A DNA stretch of 64,000 nt from Candidatus Sulfomarinibacteraceae bacterium (GTDB lineage: Bacteria > Acidobacteriota > Thermoanaerobaculia > Thermoanaerobaculales > Sulfomarinibacteraceae). The stretch lies in NCBI GenBank assembly GCA_963796455.1, contig CAWCLO010000004.1, forward strand, positions 768,001 to 832,000, in the 5' to 3' direction. Position numbers and translations under genes: made by a program. The notes beneath the pieces were generated by a model. The model saw nothing but the letters and a program-made list of their open reading frames with translations, did not search any database and was not told the origin of the DNA. Shown piece after piece: positions 15,435-26,086 of the stretch (position 1 is its first letter; every line of letters begins with the position of its first letter).

Positions 15435-18400
15435 TCAATGAAAATCATGGCTCGCCACCGCCGCGTCGGCATTGACCGCTTGGAAACGTCGAGCCTTGAC
15501 GGAGATCGTGCCGTCCTGCTTCTGTAATGGGCCTTCCACCATGATCACCGGGGTGCTGACGATGAAGGCCCGGTGTTTCTGGTAGAGATCGGGGCGGATG
15601 ATGGATTGCACCGTCCCGGTTTCGTCCTCCATGGTCAAAAAGACAAATCCCTTGGCGGTACCGGGCCGTTGTCTCACGATCACGGCTCCGGCGACCCGCA
15701 CCACTTCGCCGTCCGGGATTTCTGCGAGCTTCGCCGTCGTGATCACCCCGAGGCGATCCATCTCGTGGCGGACGTAGGCCATGAGGTGGGGGCCGGTGGT
15801 GAGGTGGAGCCCGGCGTAATCGGCAACGGTCTCATCGAGCGGCCGCATCTCGTGAAGCGGCGATGTCTTCTCGGGTGGCAGATCGGCAAAGAGAGGTCCG
15901 CGTCGCCCCGCCACTTCACCGACCTGCCACAAGGCTGCGCGGCGGCTCAAACCCAGCGAGGCCAGGGCCCCGACGTGGGCCAGCCGTTCGAGCTGTTCGG
16001 AGGAGAGATCGCACCGTCCGGCGAGGTCGGCGGAATCGGTGAAGGGTCTCCGTGCGCACTCGTCTTCGATGATCTCGCCGGCGGCCCTTTTGAGACCGTG
16101 CACATAACGCAGCCCGATCCGCACCGCGCCGTCTTCCCAACGGCAACGCCACCCCGAATGGTTGACGTCGACCGTCAGAAAACGGACGCCGTGTCGTTGG
16201 CCGTCCTTGACCAGGGTGGCTGGGTGGTAGAAGCCCATGGGCCAGGCATTGAGCAGGCTGGCGTAGAAGGCGGTGGGGTGGTGGGCCTTGAGGAAGGCGG
16301 AGGCGTAGACCAGAAGGGCGAAGCTGGCCGAGTGGGATTCGGGAAAGCCGTAAAGCGCAAAGGAGGTGATGGAGCGCACGATCTGCTCCTGGGCCTCGCC
16401 GCTGATTCCCCGTTCGGTCATCCCGCTGCGCAGACGTTTTTCGATCACCACCATTCGTTCCTGCGAACGCTTGAAGCCCATGGCACGTCGCAGCTCTTCG
16501 GCCTCGCCGCCGGAGAAACCGGCCGCCTCCATTGCGATGCGCAGCAGCTGTTCCTGGAACAGAGGCACCCCGAGGGTGCGCTCGAGGATCGGCTTCAGAC
16601 AGGGGTGGGCATAGGTCACTTCTTCGCGCCCCTGGCGCCGTTCGAGGTAGGGATTGGTCATGTTGCCGGCGATCGGTCCGGGGCGGATGATCGCCACCTG
16701 CACCACCAGGTCGTAGAAGTGTTCGGGCCGGTTGCGAGGCAGCGATGCCATCTGCGCCCGGCTTTCGATCTGAAAGACCCCGGCGGTATCGGCGCTGCGA
16801 ATCATGTCGTAGGTCTTCGGGTCTCCGGGCGGAAGGTGGGCGAGATCGATCTCAACACCTTCGTTGTCGCGGATCATGGGGATCGACTCCTCGAGGGCGG
16901 CCATCATCCCGAGCCCGAGCAGATCGACCTTGATCAGACCGAGATCGGCGCAGTCATCCTTGTCCCATTGGATCACCGTGCGGTTTTCCATTGCCGCGGG
17001 CTCCAGGGGCACCACCTCGTCGAGACGGCCCTGGGCAACCACCATCCCACCCGAGTGTTGGCCGAGGTGGCGGGGAAGGTGATGGATCTCCCACCACAAT
17101 CGTTTGAAGTGTTCGACCCGCTTCGATTCGGGGTCGAGACCGACTGCCGCCAACTCGGTGTCGAGGTCGCGCGCGCCCTCTCTGATCTCGGTCGTCATGT
17201 GGCGGCCGAATCGTTTGGAGATGCGGTCGACCTGCTCGAGTGAAAACCCCAGGGCTTTGCCGATCTCGCGCGCCGCCGACTTCGCGCGGTAGGTGATCAC
17301 GTTGGCGGTCATCCCGGCGCCGTGCGGGCCATAACGCTGGTAGACGTACTGGATGACCTTCTCACGTTGGTCGCCCGATGGCAGGTCGAGATCGATGTCG
17401 GGCCACTCGCCACGTTCTTCGGACAGAAAGCGCTCGAAGAGCAGCTCCATCTTGACCGGGTCGACCGCGGTGATCGAGAGTGCGTAACAGACCGCCGAGT
17501 TGGCCGCCGAACCACGCCCCTGGGCCATGATCTGCTCGCGCTGGCAGAAACGGACGATGTCCCAGACGATGAGGAAGTAGCCCGCCAGATCGAGTTTTTC
17601 GATCAGGTTGAGCTCCTTCTCCAACTGTGCCTGGGCGCGGGCGGTGAGCGGCCTGAAACGGGTGCGGGCGCCGTCCCAGGTCACCCGCCGGAGGTGGGAG
17701 ATCGGGCTCTCTCCAACCGGCAGGGGGTAGTCGGGAAAGCGGTAGCCGAGGTCATCCAGGGTGAACTCGAGCTCGTCGGCGAGCACTCCGGCCGCGGCCA
17801 GGGCCCGCGGCTGGTCGGCGAAGAGCAATTCCATCTCACGCGGTGATCGCAAGAAGCGCTCGCGCCCTCCTTCGATCAGGCGGCCGGCAGTGTCGACGCT
17901 GACGCCTTCGCGGATGCACGCGAGGGCATCGGCAAGATCGCGATTCTCGGGTCGGGCATAACGAATACCGCCGGTCGCCACCAGCGGCAATCTCAGGCTG
18001 CGGGCGAGATCGATCAGGGCCCGGTTGCGGTGCTCTTCATCGCGCAGCCGGTGGCGCTGCAGCTCCACATGGAGCCGTCTCGGAAAGAGCCGGTTGAGGT
18101 GTTCGAGCTCTCGTCGTGCGCCGTCGATGCCGCGGTGGATCAGACGCTGGGCGATGACTCCTTCGGAACTGCCGGTGAGACAGTGGAGCCCGTCGGCGTG
18201 GGCTGCCACCTGGGACCAGCTCGCTCTCGCCTTGCCCTTCTGACGCCCGCGGGCGGCCTCGGTGAGAAGACGGCAGAGATTGCGATAACCGCGGCGATCG
18301 GCCGCCAGGAGCGTCAACCTGGGCAGGGGAGTGCCGGCGGGAGGAGGGTTGGGGACGAGGCCGAGAGGACCTGGCAAGTTTCGGAGTTTGGAGTTCGGAA

Positions 18401-18696
18401 TTTGAATTTTCCCGCCGTTCTCCCTGAGATTGTGGGATGGGGTGGGTGTGATCAGCATCCAGCATCGAGTATCCAGCATCTGCTTCGTCCAGAACGACTT
18501 CTGCGCCGACGAGGGGTTTGATCCCTGCGTCGCGCGCCGCCTTCCAGAACCGCGGTGCGCCCGAAACGCAGTTGCGATCCACCAGCGCCACCGTTTCCAG
18601 CCCGAGTTCCGCCGCCCGTTCGACCAGATCTTCGGGTTGCGAAGCGCCTTCGAGGAAGGAGAATGCCGAGGCGCAGTGCAGCTCGGCGTACTTCAT
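15435..18696 (-). CDS. dnaE2: Error-prone DNA polymerase DnaE2, with a +1 frameshift in a repeat-containing insert in the PHP domain (between about 18480 and 18325)
   Basis: N-terminus MKYAELHCASAFSFLEGAS..GAEVVLDE (ATG 18696) is in a different frame from the body RLTLLAADRRGYRNL..GRGSAANS..PDIDLD..HLGQHSGG..ending in SHDFH (DnaE2 signature). Confidence 0.92.
18377..18480. repeat. Two heptamer tandem arrays inside dnaE2
   Basis: Minus strand GATGCTG-GATACTC-GATGCTG-GATGCTG (18480-18453) and AAATTC-AAATTCC-GAACTCC-AAACTCC-GAAAC (about 18409-18378). Confidence 0.85.
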
Positions 18697-18702
18697 CGGA
18701 CC

Positions 18703-19700
18703 AACCACAGAGGCACAGAGGTGGAAGAACGCCCGCAGATCACGCAGATAGACGCAGATCCATCGCGCTCGCTCTCGTCGCAAACACGAAGACACAAAGG
18801 CACGAAGGAGTCACACCAAGAAAACCACAGAGGCACGGAGACACAGAGAGGGAACACAGAGGGCTGGCGCAAAGGCCCACAGAACAAACAGAAAAACACA
18901 GAAGCCATCGCAAAGGCACGACCGGAGTGCAGCCGGGACGGCTGCACCACCATGGTGGTGCACGCGTCTCGCGTGCACATGGTTGAACCGCAAAGAATGC
19001 AAAGTCGCAGAGACGCAAAGGCCTGGTTGGCGAGCTTTTGCGACGTTGCCATCGGTGTCGGCAGATCGCCAGACGATCTCCGATCGCCAGTCACCGGGTG
19101 AGAAGTGGGGCGATCCCGATCGCCAGCGTTCGGAATCACCCCACTCCTCACCCGTCCGGCACGCCTACGGCATGCCGGTTCTGCCTTGCATTAGGTGACC
19201 CCAACTCTTGATTGAAGTAAGGGGGAGGAAGGAGGCGAGACCTGCGCGGTCGCGCAGGCCGCTGGGTAAGGAAACCACGACGAAAGCTTGTTTTCGGGGT
19301 GGTTTCCTTACCCAGCGGTACCTGGCCGCCGGATGGCGGCCAGGACCTCGCCGGGCGGAGGGTTCTTCCGGGAAGTCCTCTGCGTCTCCGCGCCTCTGCG
19401 CCTCTGCGTTCAATACGCTTTTGGCAAGATCGATCCAGCAGTTCGGCGGCCATTGCGCCTTCGCGTCTTTGCATCTTTGCGTTCGAAAAAGAACGGTGGG
19501 GACATGAACTCGTTGAATCAGCTCGTCGATATCATCTGTGGCTGAACCAATTCTGTGTTTTTCTGTGTGTTCTGTGGGCAACTCCGAGCGAGCCCGGTTG
19601 CGGCGAGAGGATGCCAACGGCTTTGTGATGTCTTTGTGCCTTCGTGTCTTCGTGTTTGTGACGAGATGTGTCGGGTCTGTGCCTCTGGGTCTCTGTGGTT
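18703..19700. repeat. Nested palindromic composite element, copy A (fills the imuB-dnaE2 intergenic region)
   Basis: Four nested inverted arm pairs plus multiple internal hairpins; homologous to 21401-22162 and 23259-24286. Confidence 0.9.
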
Positions 19701-19705
19701 CATTC

Positions 19706-21319
19706 CTAGTCATACATGCCATCCGCGAACCAGTCGCCGCTCGTGCGATCGCGGTAGACGCGGTACAGCCCACCGCCCGAAAGCTCCACATCCCAGTAAT
19801 CCCGCTCGATGGGCTCGTGCTTCCACCACCCGTCCTCGACGGTCCAGGGCCCTGCCGATACCCGCACGAGACCTTGAATTCTCGGTGTCGCTGCGGACTC
19901 GGAAGCAACTGAAACAAGCCGAATCGAAGCGAACAGGTTTGAGTTTTGAGTTATGAGTTTTGAGTTGTTCTCCGAGACTCTATCCGGCTGCGATGGTTGA
20001 AATTCCGAACTCCGAACTCCGAACTCCGAACTCACTTCCGTGATCACCTCGATCGGCACCGCCGGCCGCAGAACCCGCACCACCAGTAAACCTCTCCCTT
20101 TGCGCGGCGGTTGCCGCAGCTTCGGCGCCGGTGGTGGGTCGAATGCGACGGTGTTGAAACGCTCGGGCAGGTGGCCGTCGACGATCCGCGGCGAACCCAC
20201 CCGATCCGAACCAAGGCGGGCTGCGAGGTGGGCGAGGGTGCCGGCAAGCTTGTCGGGGTGGATTTCCGGCGCCCCGAAGAGGGTCAGCTGGCCGCGGCGC
20301 GGTCGATCGGGGTGGGTGATGGTGATGAAGGAGACCACCGCCGCCCGCGGTGGCTTCGATTCGAGCTCGAGACGGGTCAGGGCCAACAGGGCATCCACAT
20401 CGCGGGTCGGAGCGGGGAGCCGGATCGTACGGTGCTCCGCGCCCTCGGGTTCGAGCCCGAGCTCGATCTCGAACAAAGCACAGGCCAGGTCTTCGCGTTC
20501 GAGCCTTTTGCGGGTTCGCTCCAGGGACTGCCGCAGGGCGTAGAGCAGGGGGTCGACGGTGACCACCGGCCACTCCAGCTCCATGCCCTCGTGGAAGGTC
20601 GGTGGCGGGTGGTAGGGCTCCAGGGGGTTGGAGTCCATGCCGCGAGCCGAACGGTGTGCGTTGGCGCCGGCCGGGCCGAGGCGGCTGGCCGTGCGGTCCG
20701 CCGGCAAGCGGGCAAAGTCCCCGAGGGTACGGACGCCCCAGCGTCGCAGCGTGTCCATCAGACGCCGGTCGAGCATCAGATAAGTGAGGGGCAGGGGAGC
20801 GAGGAAGCGGGATTCCTCGCCGGCCGGCACGACCTTCGGCGTGTCGGGCATGCGGGCCGCGATCCGCGCGGCGAGTTTGTTGTTGGCGATACCGACCCGG
20901 ATCGGCAGGTCGAGGGTCTCGGCGGCGATGATGGCGGCCTGCCCCATGTCATGCTCACCCGAGGAACCTTCGTACAGTTTTTCCATGCCGCCGACATCGC
21001 TGAAGACGGTATCCGGGGCGCTGTCTTCGATCCGCGGTGAAAGGCTGGTGGCGGACTCGAGCAGGGCCTCGTGGGCCGAGCCCTCGCAGGCCTCATCGCG
21101 GCCGCGGGCGATCAACGAGGGCAGGATGCCGCGCGCCTGGGCGAGGCTCATGCCTGTGCGCACTCCGGATTTTCTTGCCGGGCGGGAGGCACCGGCCACC
21201 TTGGCGGCCGAACCGTTGCCCTCGCAGACCGCCACGGCTTCACCCGCCAACTCGGGCTCCGCGCGGAGTCGTGCCGCGAGCGGGAAGAGGGGGATGAAGA
21301 GGCATGCGATTCGGGTCAT
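19706..21319 (-). CDS. imuB: ImuB, inactive Y-family polymerase of the mutasome
   Basis: MTRIACLF start, GVRTGMSLAQAR, clamp-binding QLTLF, GPWTVEDGWW..RDYW..WFADGMYD; lies between imuA and dnaE2. Confidence 0.92.
   Translation of the reverse strand: MTRIACLFIPLFPLAARLRAEPELAGEAVAVCEGNGSAAKVAGASRPARKSGVRTGMSLAQARGILPSLIARGRDEACEGSAHEALLESATSLSPRIEDSAPDTVFSDVGGMEKLYEGSSGEHDMGQAAIIAAETLDLPIRVGIANNKLAARIAARMPDTPKVVPAGEESRFLAPLPLTYLMLDRRLMDTLRRWGVRTLGDFARLPADRTASRLGPAGANAHRSARGMDSNPLEPYHPPPTFHEGMELEWPVVTVDPLLYALRQSLERTRKRLEREDLACALFEIELGLEPEGAEHRTIRLPAPTRDVDALLALTRLELESKPPRAAVVSFITITHPDRPRRGQLTLFGAPEIHPDKLAGTLAHLAARLGSDRVGSPRIVDGHLPERFNTVAFDPPPAPKLRQPPRKGRGLLVVRVLRPAVPIEVITEVSSEFGVRSSEFQPSQPDRVSENNSKLITQNSNLFASIRLVSVASESAATPRIQGLVRVSAGPWTVEDGWWKHEPIERDYWDVELSGGGLYRVYRDRTSGDWFADGMYD
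19937..20034. repeat. Paired heptamer arrays forming an in-frame hairpin insertion in imuB
   Basis: (TTGAGTT)-type x4 and (CCGAACT) x4, mutually inverted; translated as SEFGVRSSEF..NSKLITQNSN. Confidence 0.85.
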
Positions 21320-21328
21320 GGACAGGAG

Positions 21329-21386
21329 GAGTTCGGAATTCGGAGTTCGGAATTCGGAATTCGGAGTTCGGAATTCGGAATTTCCG
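21329..21386. repeat. Heptamer tandem array (GARTTCG)x7-8 immediately upstream of the imuB start
   Basis: gagttcg gaattcg gagttcg gaattcg gaattcg gagttcg gaattcg gaatttc. Confidence 0.9.
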
Positions 21387-21400
21387 ACCGTCCGTCCGGA

Positions 21401-22162
21401 AAACCACAGAGGCACAGAGACGCAGAGAGAGAACACAGAGATGCAAGAGCGGAAGAACGCCCGCAGATCACGCAGATCGACGCAGATCCATCGCAAACGG
21501 TCTCGCCGCAACCACCAAGACACAAAGGCACGAAGGAGTCACACCAAGAAAACCACAGAGGCACGGAGACACAGAGAGGGAACACAGAAGCCATCGCAAA
21601 GGCACGACCGGAGTGCAGCCGGGACGGCTGCACCACCATGGTGGTGCACGCGTCTCGCGTGCACATGGTTGAACCGCAAAGAACGCAAAGTCGCAGAGAC
21701 GCAAAGGCCTGGTTGGCGAGCTTGTACGGGGTTGCCATCAGTGTCGGCAGATCGACAGACGATCTCTGATCGTCCGTCGCCGGTGAGAAGCGGGGTGACT
21801 CCAATCGCCAGCGCTCGGAGTCACCCCGCTTCCCACCGGCCGGCACGCCTCCGGCATGCCGGTTCTGCCTTGCATCGGGGGCCCCATCCTCGATTGAAGG
21901 AAAGGGGAGAAAGGAGGCGAGACCTGCGCGGTCGCGCAGGCCGCTGGGTAAGGAAACCACCCCGAAAACAAGCTTTCGTTGCGGTTTCCTTACCCAGCGG
22001 TACCTGGCCGCCGGATGGCGGCCAGGACCTCGCCGGGCGGTGAGTTCTTTCGGGAAGTCCTCTGTGTCTCTCTGCGTGATCTGCGGGTCCGGCTTCGTCG
22101 CTCCGCGGCTACGCCGTGACAAGCACCTTGGTGGCGGCTTCGTGTCTTGGTGTCTTGGTGGC
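21401..22162. repeat. Nested palindromic composite element, copy B (imuA-imuB intergenic)
   Basis: Core GTGCAGCCGGGACGGCTGCACCACCATGGTGGTGCACGCGTCTCGCGTGCAC at 21613 is identical to 18927 and 23506. Confidence 0.9.
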
Positions 22163-22174
22163 AAAAACATCCGC

Positions 22175-22285
22175 TCACACGCAGAAGGCGAGCATCAAAA
22201 AACAAAACCCGAAGAGCAGCAATCCGCAGGCCTGGCCAGCGAGTTCGAAGAAACCACGAACGCTCATTTCAGATGTTTGCGACAT
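22175..22285 (-). CDS. Putative 36-aa hydrophobic small protein overlapping the imuA 3' end
   Basis: AAGGAG RBS upstream of ATG 22285; MSQTSEMSVRGFFELAGQACGLLLFGFCFLMLAFCV. Confidence 0.4.
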   Translation of the reverse strand: MSQTSEMSVRGFFELAGQACGLLLFGFCFLMLAFCV

Positions 22286-23156
22286 GTCTTTCTCTCCTTT
22301 TTTCCTCGGCTCCGGATCGTTCCGTCTCCCCGGGACGGGTGGGCGGCAAATCCGAAATTCGAAATTCGAAATCCGAAATCTGATCGTGTCCAGTACCGGC
22401 GGCCAAACCGAACCCCGCTTCAGGAAGGGTGAAGGTTGCAACAACGCTGCCGAGGTCCGGGTAGCCGATGCGTTTGTTCAGATAAAGGCGTGTCTGCAAC
22501 CCATTGAGCAGCCGGGAGGCCTTGCCGCCGCCGCTCCAGCTGCCGCGCCCGCGGCCGCCGGCAAGCACTGCACCGGCGGCACACCCGCTCGAACGGTAGG
22601 GCGAACCCACCAAGACGATCGCGCCGTGGGTCGCGGCGGTGCGGTTGAGCCGCAGCCAGGCCGCCAGCGGTGCCCGGCCGCGCACCGGCGGCAGACCGAG
22701 ATCGAGGGCGACCAGTGGAAAGCCGGTGTGGAGCAGGATCTCGGTGGTCGCCAGGGAGTCGTTGAGGTTCTCGGGGCGCAGCCACAGGAGCCGTTCGAGA
22801 TCGACCCCGATCTCCGCCGCTGTCTGCGGGTCGAGCTGTGCCCCCTGATCGACCAGCGCCGCGACCTCACCGGCACCGGTCACCGCCCGCAACGCCGACA
22901 ACAGGGCGGCGAAGCGGCCGCAGGACCCACGCCCTACCAGTTCCACGAGCCGGCCCCGGGGCAGACCGCCTCCGAGCAGGTGATCGAGGCCCTCCAATGA
23001 GGTGGGGAGGGGCTCGTCATGCAGTTCCTCGCGTCGTCGGCGGACCAGATCCGAGGCCAGGTGGAGGGAGTTGCGCAGTTCTTCCGGGAGCTCGAAATGC
23101 CCTGTCGACAGGGTTTCTGAGGCTTTTTTCTCGGATTTGAGCTGTGCGACGGCCAT
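22269..23156 (-). CDS. imuA: ImuA/RecA-like mutasome protein
   Basis: LDHLLGGGLPRGRLVELVG with degenerate Walker A (GRGSCGRF), GVDLERLLWLRP; RBS GGGAGG before ATG 23156. Confidence 0.88.
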   Translation of the reverse strand: MAVAQLKSEKKASETLSTGHFELPEELRNSLHLASDLVRRRREELHDEPLPTSLEGLDHLLGGGLPRGRLVELVGRGSCGRFAALLSALRAVTGAGEVAALVDQGAQLDPQTAAEIGVDLERLLWLRPENLNDSLATTEILLHTGFPLVALDLGLPPVRGRAPLAAWLRLNRTAATHGAIVLVGSPYRSSGCAAGAVLAGGRGRGSWSGGGKASRLLNGLQTRLYLNKRIGYPDLGSVVATFTLPEAGFGLAAGTGHDQISDFEFRISDLPPTRPGETERSGAEEKRRERHVANI

Positions 23157-23187
23157 CTCTTGCCTCCCGATTCGGGTCTGGTTTTTC

Positions 23188-23216
23188 AGTATAGGTGTAA
23201 ATAAGGTATAAATCAA
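23188..23216 (-). promoter_or_regulatory. sigma70-like promoter of imuA-imuB-dnaE2 overlapped by a direct-repeat operator
   Basis: TTGATT(23216-23211)-17-TATACT(23193-23188); AGGTGTAAAT/AGGTATAAAT direct repeat with 11-bp period. Confidence 0.65.
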
Positions 23217-23258
23217 CTCGAAATCTATTTCCACCCGGAAAACCACCGGTGACAACGG

Positions 23259-24286
23259 CGGAAGAACGCCCGCAGATCACGCAGATGAACGCAGATCCAT
23301 CGCGCTCGCTCTCGTCGCAAACACGAAGACACAAAGGCACGAAGGAGTCACACCAAGAAAACCACAGAGGCACGGAGACACAGAGAGAGGACGCCCGCAG
23401 ATCACGCAGATAGACGCAGATTCATCGCAAACGGTCTCGTCGCAACCACGATGGCCCACAGAACACACAGAAAAACACAGAAGCCATCGCAAAGGCACGA
23501 CCGGAGTGCAGCCGGGACGGCTGCACCACCATGGTGGTGCACGCGTCTCGCGTGCACATGGTTGAACCGCAAAGAACGCAAAGTCGCAGAGACGCAAAGG
23601 CCTGGTTGGCGAGCTTGTACGGGGTTGCCATCAGTGTCGGCAGATCGACAGACGATCTCTGATCGTCCGTCGCCGGTGAGAAGCGGGGTGACTCCAATCG
23701 CCAGCGCTCGGAGTCACCCCGCTTCCCACCGGCCGGCACGCCTCCGGCATGCCGAATCTGCCTTGCATCGGTGACATCCTCCATTGATTGAAGGAAAGGG
23801 GAGGAAGGAGGCGAGACCTGCGCGGTCGCGCAGGCCGCTGGGTCAGGAAACCGTGACGAGAGCTGGTTTTGGGGCGGTTTCCTGACCCAGCGGTACCTGG
23901 CCGCCCTTGGCGGCCAGGATCTCGCCGGGCGGAGGATTCTTCCGGGACGTCCTCTGCGTCTCCGCGACTCTGCGCCTCTGCGTTCAATATTCTTTTGGCA
24001 CTATCGATCCAGCAGTTCGGCTGCCATTGCGCCTTCGCATCTTGGCGCCTTTGCGTTGATGAACCCGGATGCTGATGCTCTTCGATTGCAGAATTGGTGA
24101 TGCCTTCGCAATCAGGCTTTCATCTGCGTCTATCTGCGTGATCTGCGGGCTATTCGCGCTGCGTTGCGATGGTTTCTGTGTTTTTCTGTGTGTTCTGTGG
24201 GTCCGGTTTCGTCGCTCCGCGGCTACGCCGTGACAAGCACCTTGGTGGCGGCTTTGTGTCTTGGTGTCTTGGTGGTTGCGACGAGA
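23259..24286. repeat. Nested palindromic composite element, copy C (between imuA promoter and blaI)
   Basis: Shares left arms and distal block with copy A, central block and right end with copy B. Confidence 0.9.
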
Positions 24287-24339: not shown

Positions 24340-24375
24340 TTGACAAACGAAGATCATAGTACTAAGTTTTTAGTA
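24340..24375 (+). promoter_or_regulatory. blaI promoter with palindromic operator; probably a leaderless mRNA
   Basis: TTGACA(24340)-17-TAAGTT(24363); TACTAA-gttt-TTAGTA (24360-24375) overlaps the -10 and the ATG; ATG lies 6 nt after the -10. Confidence 0.65.
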
Positions 24376-24749
24376 TGAAGAAATCAGAAAGCAAGCTGAC
24401 CGACACCGAACTCGAGATCATGCAGGTGGTCTGGGCAATCGGTGGCGGCACCGTGCGCCACGTCCACGAATGCCTCAACCAACGCCGCCAGTTGGCGTAC
24501 ACCACGGTAATGACCATGATGAACATTCTCGAGGAGAAGGGGCATCTCACCCGCACCAAAGAGGGCCGCGCGTATCGTTACGAGCCCGTTCGTCCGAAGA
24601 GCCAGGTCATCTCGGGGATGGTGGATGATTTTGTCGGCAAGGTCTTCGAGGGATCGGTGCGGCCCCTCGTTCTCAGCCTGGTCAAAGACCGCAAATTGTC
24701 GGAAAAGGACCTCGAAGAGATCGCACGCATGATCCGGGAGATCGAATGA
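24375..24749 (+). CDS. BlaI/MecI/CopY family repressor
   Basis: LTDTELEIMQVVW..LAYTTVMTMMNILEEKG..FEGSVRPLVLSLV. Confidence 0.93.
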   Translation: MKKSESKLTDTELEIMQVVWAIGGGTVRHVHECLNQRRQLAYTTVMTMMNILEEKGHLTRTKEGRAYRYEPVRPKSQVISGMVDDFVGKVFEGSVRPLVLSLVKDRKLSEKDLEEIARMIREIE

Positions 24750-26086
24750 ACCTCCACGAAACCGCCACCGCCGTCCTTTCCTACGCGCTCCAGAGCGGCC
24801 TCCTCTTGGGGGTCGGCCTCCTGTTGCCGCGTCTCCTGAAGATCCGGCACCCAAGAACTCTGCTCACATATTGGCGAGCCCTCCTCGTAGTCGTGGTGCT
24901 GCTTCCCGTCCTCCTTGCCGGTTGGACGCCGCCAAAAACCCTGCCGTTGCTCCGACTCGAGGCCGCTTCGGTAGAAACGGTGACGGCGACCCTTCCACCC
25001 TCGGTGGCGGCCGTCAGCGGTCGCAATCTGCTGGTCGCAGCCGCGGTCGTCACACTCCTCGGACTGATCCGGCTTTTCGTGGGCCTCGTTTTTCTCAACC
25101 GTTGCCGGCGGGCGGCATCCCCGTTGACGCCGTTTCCGATGGTCCTGGGTGCGCTGCAGCGCCGCTTCAAGCTGGAGGTGCCGATCCTGGTGTCGGATCG
25201 ACTGACGGTGCCCTTCACCTTTGGATGGATCCGCCCGGTGGTGATGGTCCCGCCATCGTTCCATACGCTCTCGGTGGACGAACAGGAGGGAGTGGCTTGC
25301 CACGAACTGCTCCACATCCGGCGTCGCGACTGGGCGATGACGGTTCTCGAGGAGATCCTCCGAGCCGCACTGTGGTTTCATCCTGCGGTCTGGATCCTGC
25401 TGCCGAAGATCGCGCTCAGTAGAGAAATGGTGGTGGATGCGGGAACCGTCAGGATGACCGGAAAACGCCGCCAATACCTCGAGGCTCTGTGGCAGATCGT
25501 GTGTTCCCAGTCTCGTCCCACCGCAACCCTGGCTTTGCCCCTACTGGGCAGATCCAATGTCTTCGAACGTGTGCAATGGCTGAAGAAGGAGAGAACAATG
25601 TCCAAAGGCCGAGTCATTTTGTTCGCAGTTGTGATGGTCCTTGCCGTTGGCGGCGCAGGGGTCCTCGGTGCCGCCGTGTTTTCGCCGGTGGCCCATGACG
25701 CGATGGACGTGGCACCGATTGCGTCCTCCGATGAGCCGGAAAAAGAAAAACAGAAAGTAAAATCGAAGGCTGAGAAAAAGCAGCTGAGGCGCTTCGAATC
25801 GAGCGAAGAGTGCAATGAAATCACCCATCCGACGGTCGGCGAGAAGACTCCGCCAAAATATCCCGAATCGGCGCGGGCGGAAAAGGTCATGGGAATGGTC
25901 GTCGTCGAGACGGTGATCAGCGAAGAAGGGTCGGTCGAAGCGATCAAGATCCTGGAATCGCCGGATGACCGCCTGTCCGAGGCAGCCACGGAGGCGGTCC
26001 GGCAATGGCAATTCGAACCCGCCCTGTGCGATGGCCGACCGGTCGCCGTGTACTACAACCTCACCGTCAATTTCCGACTCAAATAA
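24746..26086 (+). CDS. BlaR1-type M56 peptidase fused to a TonB C-terminal domain
   Basis: PFTFGWIRP, HELLHIRRRD, WFHPAVW, REMVVD; C-terminal PKYPESAR..AVRQWQFEPA..VNFRL. Confidence 0.9.
   Translation: MNLHETATAVLSYALQSGLLLGVGLLLPRLLKIRHPRTLLTYWRALLVVVVLLPVLLAGWTPPKTLPLLRLEAASVETVTATLPPSVAAVSGRNLLVAAAVVTLLGLIRLFVGLVFLNRCRRAASPLTPFPMVLGALQRRFKLEVPILVSDRLTVPFTFGWIRPVVMVPPSFHTLSVDEQEGVACHELLHIRRRDWAMTVLEEILRAALWFHPAVWILLPKIALSREMVVDAGTVRMTGKRRQYLEALWQIVCSQSRPTATLALPLLGRSNVFERVQWLKKERTMSKGRVILFAVVMVLAVGGAGVLGAAVFSPVAHDAMDVAPIASSDEPEKEKQKVKSKAEKKQLRRFESSEECNEITHPTVGEKTPPKYPESARAEKVMGMVVVETVISEEGSVEAIKILESPDDRLSEAATEAVRQWQFEPALCDGRPVAVYYNLTVNFRLK

Follow-up and report, generated by a model that had tools for sequence, protein, structure and literature searches.

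Composite repeats at the imuA-imuB-dnaE2 locus of a Sulfomarinibacteraceae genome nest nuclease-cassette arms around a pair of inverted four-way junctions

Three palindromic elements, copies A, B and C, adjoin the mutasome genes dnaE2, imuB and imuA in a 64,000-nt stretch of a Candidatus Sulfomarinibacteraceae genome (contig CAWCLO010000004.1, positions 768,001 to 832,000; the window, whose own numbering is used below). The genome containing the window is referred to as G000, and C1, C4 and C5 are contigs of it. The reading that we favor, at a probability of about 55%, is that A, B and C represent a gene-less composite repeat, built of inverted GxxExxY nuclease-cassette ends nested round two inverted four-way junctions, which probably functions in the form of folded single-stranded DNA, with gene conversion between copies the likely means of keeping it uniform. 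The evidence comes from the anatomy of the element, the match of its arms to nuclease-cassette ends, covariation and strand asymmetry in its core, a replichore bias in most genomes tested, and the persistence of its sites together with homogenized, mosaic sequence and inversion of the core at some of these sites.

Copy A had originally been described as a concentric fold of at least eight hairpins, and this description stands: all four nested arm pairs are present at the predicted positions (e.g. 18773-18815 with 19624-19666, and 18875-18903 with 19551-19579) and the minus strand folds into more than eight hairpins with z = -17.2 relative to 20 shuffles. Copies B and C both align to copy A, with most right arms missing from B and with C starting at about 23243. 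No open reading frame (ORF) or gene was found within the element, and the proposal that it is a non-autonomous composite of palindromic modules agrees with the covarying structure described below and with a search of Rfam, which returned no match at the gathering threshold over the window and only nine weak sub-threshold hairpin matches at five loci. The parts of the three copies, including their repetitive extragenic palindromic (REP) doublets, are as follows.

18703-19700, no strand assigned: copy A, whole element, in the imuB-dnaE2 gap; the orthologous gap is occupied in other species
18703-18903, plus strand: copy A left shell, with arms of the CACAGAG, CGCAGAT, CACGAAG, CACAGAG and CACAGAA types
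18927-18978, no strand assigned: copy A REP doublet
18989-19024, plus strand: copy A CGCAAAG-type arm; a matching arm lies beside a GxxExxY gene at G000:C1:750134
19060-19185, minus strand: copy A core domain D1, a four-way junction favoring the minus strand
19186-19233, no strand assigned: copy A variable spacer between D1 and D2, 40-68 nt across 38 aligned cores
19234-19352, plus strand: copy A core domain D2, a four-way junction favoring the plus strand and the inverted homolog of D1
19380-19700, minus strand: copy A right shell, with mirrored arms of the CGCAGAG, CGCAAAG, CACAGAA, CACGAAG and CACAGAG types
21399-22162, no strand assigned: copy B, upstream of imuB, with a shortened right shell
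21613-21664, 21746-21869 and 21916-22034: REP doublet, D1 and D2 of copy B
23243-24286, no strand assigned: copy C, flanked by an imuA promoter match and blaI
23506-23557, 23639-23762 and 23810-23926: REP doublet, D1 and D2 of copy C

The outer part of each copy is a shell of nested inverted arms, five types of which are the arms that surround GxxExxY (PD-(D/E)XK) genes. G000 possesses three GxxExxY (PF13366) genes, one of them broken, each with its own type of inverted arm on either side, and the element contains all three of these types; the CACAGAG, CGCAGAT and CACGAAG arms of the copy A left shell are all types that flank GxxExxY genes, and no gene was found for the CACAGAA type. Across the genus, our own patterns detected the same arm type on both sides in 22 of 31 GxxExxY locus rows (three of which repeat a gene), on one side in four and on neither in five. 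The flanking types were CACAGAG, CACGAAG, CGCAGAT, CGCAAAG and CGCAGAG, all found in the element, plus a CCCAGAT variant. On a tree of 22 GxxExxY proteins, the proteins cluster by arm type, with the smallest possible number of label changes (5, against a shuffled mean of 14), with one label set by eye and with related proteins sharing labels. The order of the arms is also regular. Among 58 full cores of relatives, CACAGAG lies outside CACGAAG in 27:0 cases on the left and 25:0 on the right, CACGAAG lies outside CGCAGAT in 11:4 and 15:1, respectively, and at least two arm types are common to both sides, in mirrored fashion, in 38. The shells of G000 are longer and less regular than those of its relatives, and its intergenic DNA additionally holds free modules, amounting to 79 CGCAGAT arms and approximately 100 REPs. 

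A structure model of the GxxExxY protein (predicted local distance difference test score 96) adopts the PD-(D/E)XK fold, and no solved structural homolog was found by sequence. We considered and rejected a Holliday-junction resolvase identity for this protein, given that the best match (SSO0001, Z 8.0, root-mean-square deviation 3.3, 96 aligned) and Hjc (Z 6.4) indicate no special likeness. As a separate observation, at one conserved chromosomal site (L011, L283-L286, L288, L291, L293 and L294) the GxxExxY cassette subtype and its arms, of the CACAGAG or CACGAAG type, vary by species, a sequence pattern that suggests replacement of whole cassettes; at L011, the first residues of the GxxExxY protein are encoded by the left arm.

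Besides the nuclease-type arms, the element contains an inserted 52-nt doublet that is its only REP pair. The first REP of the copy A doublet (18927-18978) shares 29-34 nt of identity with REPs on both sides of a REP-associated tyrosine transposase (RAYT) gene at G000:C4:210157, in which the HUH and tyrosine motifs appear intact. None of the six Y1 matches in G000, the one genome in which RAYT was looked for, showed similarity to the core.

The core consists of two homologous four-way junctions, D1 and D2, in inverted relative orientation. In the 38-core alignment from which the structure was also derived, 60 of 103 pairs exhibit two-sided change and 92.3% of cells are paired, compared to 36 pairs in shuffles and 18-27 with slid partners; relatedness inflates these covariation counts. 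Each core unit is 120-130 nt long, and reverse-complemented D1 aligns along the length of D2, with 41 of 51 pairs showing two-sided change. The two domains share a long arm with a tandem G-A in 31 of 52 cases and a C-T-N-G tip. Core hairpins were not found outside elements in G000, and 23 of the 25 matches returned by a generic junction search over 607 G000 gaps fell within known elements. At 7 of 11 loci of the sister genus, the second junction, which comes after D1, has another sequence. A third four-way-junction subtype with the same long-arm tip occurs in metagenome loci L192, L200, L211, L219, L224 and L231, and two further loci (L152 and L202) look like chimeras joined at this tip.

The two junctions differ in the strand that they favor. 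On the plus strand, D1 carries more A-C than G-T (39 versus 16 pairs, 90 versus 21 cells) and D2 more G-T than A-C (35 versus 22 pairs, 97 versus 38 cells), and these asymmetries are opposite (Fisher p = 0.0007). Because a mutational strand bias would hit both halves alike, D1 and D2 likely work on opposite strands, which argues against one large structured RNA, one of the two natures originally considered for the element.

A system of three copies specific to the mutasome is not supported by the genome-wide searches. BLASTN of A, B and C against G000 yielded 73 merged loci, 33 of them longer than 300 bp, and a core profile search recovered 34 cores, including 22 full doublets. All 33 mapped loci are intergenic by our own gene calls, with 16 between convergent genes (compared to 426 of 2530 gaps overall), and gene 3' ends make up 45 of the 66 element flanks. 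The copies are clustered, forming 19 clusters where 28.1 would be expected (0 of 5000 simulations as low); 11 of them are no more than 300 kb from C4's GC-skew switch, where 4.0 are expected, and one lies on the contig with the opposite, origin-type switch, where 5.4 are expected. The core was matched in 24 of 24 genomes of the genus, in 6 of 10 sister-genus genomes and in none of 40 genomes (28 candidates scored in each) that represent 22 further genera in the family; one of these 40, G041, gave weak covariance-model matches at its mutasome gaps. A phylum-wide model search, weak in that 21 candidates were scored per genome, returned none in 150 other genomes. Matches per genome range from 2 (G014, 96% complete in 10 contigs) to 42 (G008, reverse-strand duplicates included). 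Named records carrying the element are mostly Candidatus Sulfomarinibacteraceae or Thermoanaerobaculia, with typical elements also in two records deposited under the labels Deltaproteobacteria and Chondromyces; a pattern match in Saccharopolyspora (L057) was dismissed as a chance hairpin. Plasmids gave no element match, and viral contigs gave one pattern match without a core domain.

In addition to being widespread, the cores are oriented with respect to replication. The D1-to-D2 direction lies on the G-rich strand in 31 of 34 G000 cores and in all 22 full ones, and in relatives, for which 40 stretches were selected from the match lists, it does so in 14/16 (G001), 12/15 (G005), 9/9 (G006), 2/2 (G021) and 2/2 (G024) cases. 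Overall, 76 of 91 cores are oriented in line with GC skew, and the sign of the skew in 19 kb equals that in 100 kb for 217 of 221 G000 windows. Free arm and REP modules exhibit no such polarity (38/79, 51/100 and 36/61), and a search with a dif consensus gave no match to a dif-like site. At approximately 200 kb on C5, G000 has a second plus-to-minus GC-skew switch besides that of C4, which points to an inversion or mis-join.

The sites of the element are stable even though its sequence is not. A position-blind metagenome scan, the figures from which refer to the matches listed, detected a core domain in at least 74 of 113 loci, of which 71 are distinct and 48 have an identifiable neighbor; of these 48, the three mutasome gaps account for nine and further gaps that are filled in G000 for 12, and the other 27 lie at different places, several of which recur. 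The mutasome gaps are thus among the most often filled, and the suspected locus preference is real in that these gaps are favored and hold one orientation in 23 of 23 cores, but it is not exclusive, and either tolerance or selection is compatible with it. Seven genomes possess full cores in both gaps flanking imuB. Within a genome the A and B cores share 80-94% identity; for cores at the same gap compared between G000 and six relatives the figure is 57-68%, against 80-82% for imuB. Grouping follows genome over site in 18 of 21 genome pairs. Among the 22 full G000 copies, the identity of D1 does not correlate with that of D2 (rho -0.07), and conflicts in the four-gamete test, to which homoplasy could contribute, increase with distance (15/39, 120/200 and 116/167). 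This combination of grouping by genome and mosaicism points to gene conversion. Independent, repeated insertion at each locus, as first supposed, is at odds both with this grouping and with the fixed, mirrored arm order in relatives. Copies at most 30 kb apart are not clearly more alike than others (89.2 versus 88.4%, p = 0.12), giving no indication of local copying.

What occupies a site, and in which direction, can nonetheless change. Both core orientations occur at 9 of the 28 gene ends with at least three elements (five sites); the mutasome gene ends, where loci were fetched on purpose, are never flipped (16/16, 13/13 and 6/6). Some orthologous imu cassettes have gaps without the element: in other species the imuB-dnaE2 gap contains arms only, heptamer arms plus a REP doublet, or a single base, and at other orthologous gaps the element is swapped with a four-helix-bundle cassette. 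Target-site duplications are not in evidence (2 of 24 with at least 5 bp, versus 1.2 in shuffles). The PF05635 four-helix-bundle family has 70 matches in G000, mostly 135-codon frames, with one in the window (G000:C4:818316).

From these patterns we infer a cycle of nicking, repair-copying and seeding. The element would fold when single-stranded at the replication fork, and the folded strand would be nicked by enzymes supplied in trans, whether GxxExxY subtypes, RAYT or a junction-binding enzyme; repair from another copy would then overwrite the nicked site, the inverted arms would let the core flip, and rare events would seed or delete an element. In this scheme the mutasome gaps would count as landing sites that are old and tolerated, not as the purpose of the element. 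Several observations weigh against such a cycle. Neither cleavage, nor excision, nor a new insertion was observed, and no gene for a cognate enzyme was found beside or between the core domains: none lies between D1 and D2, as in an autonomous version, among the 114 loci listed, and no nuclease or transposase family was found near cores in 57 non-overlapping frames scanned, out of 206 without a G000 homolog. No GxxExxY match was obtained in 7 of 24 relatives, some of them with many copies and all of them draft genomes. The replichore bias fails in G008 (8 of 15), and because copies are clustered (19 versus 28 expected) the polarity counts are not independent. Three of the 21 genome pairs, among the four closest genomes, group by site, and the never-flipped orientation at the mutasome could reflect selection on a transcript. 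Compensatory changes in palindromes, moreover, can come from strand-switch correction without selection.

Some of these points would suit an element that acts at the RNA level, in which opposing transcripts would each encounter one of the two junctions in the orientation that it favors, leading to two-way processing, stabilizing or blocking and, within the mutasome operon, to the uncoupling and damping of imuB and dnaE2. The frequency of gene 3' ends among flanks (45/66) and of convergent neighbors (16/33), the tolerance of G-U pairs and CUUG-like tips, the invariant orientation at the mutasome and the 9 of 48 position-blind loci listed that fall there all fit this proposal. Nevertheless, orientation tracks replication more than transcription, the imuA promoter match lies downstream of copy C, terminator-like sites show no enrichment (9 versus 5.3 +/- 2.4), other species leave these gaps empty or fill them with unrelated cargo, and Rfam offers no match, so we judge an RNA role to be unlikely. 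The polarity of all 22 full copies in G000 and all nine in G006 raises the prospect of a domesticated, replication-polar chromosome site, at which a host protein binds the twin junction at the fork for restart, termination or segregation and the nuclease arms were only a past vehicle of spread. The concentration of 11 copies within 300 kb of the C4 skew switch (4.0 expected) and the single copy on the origin-type contig (5.4 expected) are in keeping with it, as is the fact that the sister genus retains the two-junction layout, its second junction having another sequence (7/11 loci). We consider it quite unlikely, however, given that a 96% complete, 10-contig genome of the genus has only two matches, G008 lacks polarity, the core is inverted at five shared sites and nothing was found in 40 genomes of 22 other family genera (28 candidates scored each).

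It is very unlikely, and already disfavored, that the gaps are mere hot spots where independent small elements inserted into one another, with neither a replication unit nor selection on the fold. Such passive accretion would explain why G000 intergenic DNA is a mosaic of free modules (79 CGCAGAT arms, ~100 REPs), why orthologous gaps exchange cargo and why the G000 shells are irregular; it does not account for core hairpins not being found outside elements, for the fixed and mirrored arm order in relatives, for the grouping of copies by genome, or for the retention of strand-specific wobble pairs and tandem G-A (31/52). A classical MITE (miniature inverted-repeat transposable element), with a DDE transposase acting on the outermost inverted arms, is hardly credible: perfect inverted arms do end many copies in relatives, but the type of end arm varies, target-site duplication is absent (2/24 versus 1.2 shuffled), the sites are old and shared, and the arms are those of GxxExxY genes rather than of a transposase.

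Compared to known systems, the composite repeat that we favor would work, by analogy, like a REPIN (an inverted REP doublet) within a mosaic resembling a bacterial interspersed mosaic element (BIME), and falls outside REPINs, BIMEs and MITEs in unit size, module type and target duplication. Like REPINs with their RAYTs (PMC3116915), it is intergenic and non-autonomous and pairs two inverted copies of a palindromic unit across a spacer of variable length, with compensatory changes; in addition, it contains a genuine REP doublet whose cognate RAYT is present in the genome. The REPIN unit, however, is a 20-40 nt REP and the doubled unit here is a 120-130 nt four-way junction; REPINs are spread randomly, whereas the sites of this element are common to species and clustered, its orientation is replichore-biased and no cognate core enzyme was found. 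BIMEs and Neisseria intergenic mosaics (PMC3184786) are likewise ordered mosaics of several repeat modules with a convergent-gene bias, and REP dimers nested in larger palindromes (PMC3733652) likewise place one repeat inside another palindrome. BIMEs, which bind integration host factor, gyrase or DNA polymerase I, alternate REP units with BIME linkers, whereas the modules here are junctions and GxxExxY arms, the ends of several nuclease-gene cassettes arranged concentrically over 0.5-1.3 kb round a covarying twin junction. The bcr1 repeat of the Bacillus cereus group (PMC3184786) is also dispersed, with a cruciform-like fold kept by compensatory changes, but is ~155 bp long with 5-bp direct repeats and positions that are not conserved, in contrast to an element with conserved positions, no duplication and two inverted junctions. 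IS200/IS605 and IS91 are likewise biased in orientation with respect to the replication fork, a bias ascribed to the occurrence of single-stranded DNA on the side of the lagging strand (PMC3971601), and differ in that the element has neither a transposase gene nor demonstrated transposition. GxxExxY (PDDEXK_3, PF13366) is listed as of unknown function (PMC3424549); the terminal inverted arms of its cassettes are the shell arms of the element, which itself has no gene and stacks arms of several subtypes together. MITEs share its terminal inverted repeats in the form of mirrored arms, and it departs from structured-RNA families in that its two core domains favor opposite strands and that it has no Rfam match.

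In a literature search confined to the main text of open-access papers, we found neither GxxExxY arms, nor the repeats of this lineage, nor an element with twin junctions described. As far as searched, the element is undescribed, a BIME/REPIN-like composite and a new variant of mosaic palindromic repeats with an unproven mechanism. It is rather unlikely that it constitutes an undescribed class, in which the ends of several nucleases are stacked round a replication-polar pair of Holliday-junction mimics at sites fixed for the age of the genus, rewritten by nuclease-triggered conversion and recruited at an error-prone polymerase operon to tune mutagenesis. The element joins three unexplained things, namely the large GxxExxY nuclease family, whose function is unknown, repeats that form four-way junctions, and palindromic mosaics that are long-lived. 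Its five arm types, matched to protein subtypes, offer ready enzyme-substrate pairs for testing, and the strand and replichore signals indicate which strand to test. Stable sites with homogenized sequence represent concerted evolution of a bacterial non-coding repeat, and were the mutasome placement selected, it would be a new way of shaping error-prone repair.

At the mutasome locus itself, Pfam supports the identities of dnaE2, imuB and imuA as neighbors of the elements. The claim that one element precedes each gene is right as to placement and needs two corrections: a 36-codon ORF lies between imuA and copy B, and a promoter match lies between copy C and imuA. The neighboring features are as follows.

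15435-18696, minus strand: dnaE2 (Pfam), with its PHP domain in two frames and a heptamer-array linker at ~18380-18490
19706-21319, minus strand: imuB, IMS family (Pfam)
22175-22285, minus strand: 36-codon ORF in the interval between imuA and copy B, found in relatives
22269-23156, minus strand: imuA, RecA-like (Pfam)
23188-23216, minus strand: sigma70-like promoter match upstream of imuA and downstream of copy C, a consensus match only

Given the position of the promoter match (23216-23188; one found in the consensus search versus 0.8 expected), copy C probably lies outside the imuA operon transcript. Mis-assembly is unlikely: the right ends of A (X1 record 4, X3 record 20) and B (X2 record 14) are spanned by contigs of public sediment runs, and other species hold elements at the same gaps.

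The 36-codon ORF encodes a hydrophobic product, overlaps the end of imuA and occurs upstream of imuB across many of the family's genomes. The linker at 18380-18490 that splits the dnaE2 PHP domain consists of inverted heptamer arrays; most relatives seen keep it in frame, and in L042 it is interrupted. None of the public-run contigs covers 18383-18440, and the frame split may be either an assembly error or an on/off switch operating via repeat number. Heptamer arrays also occur in frame within the C-terminal part of imuB (19950-20035) and in the imuA tail (22345-22385). Divergent from imuA, at 24375-26086, are genes for a BlaI-type repressor and a BlaR1-like M56 peptidase fused to a TonB C-terminal domain. 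Finally, in another genus (L118 and L119) the imuB-dnaE2 gap contains a short, conserved, AT-rich, promoter-like stretch, and dnaE2 may there have its own promoter.

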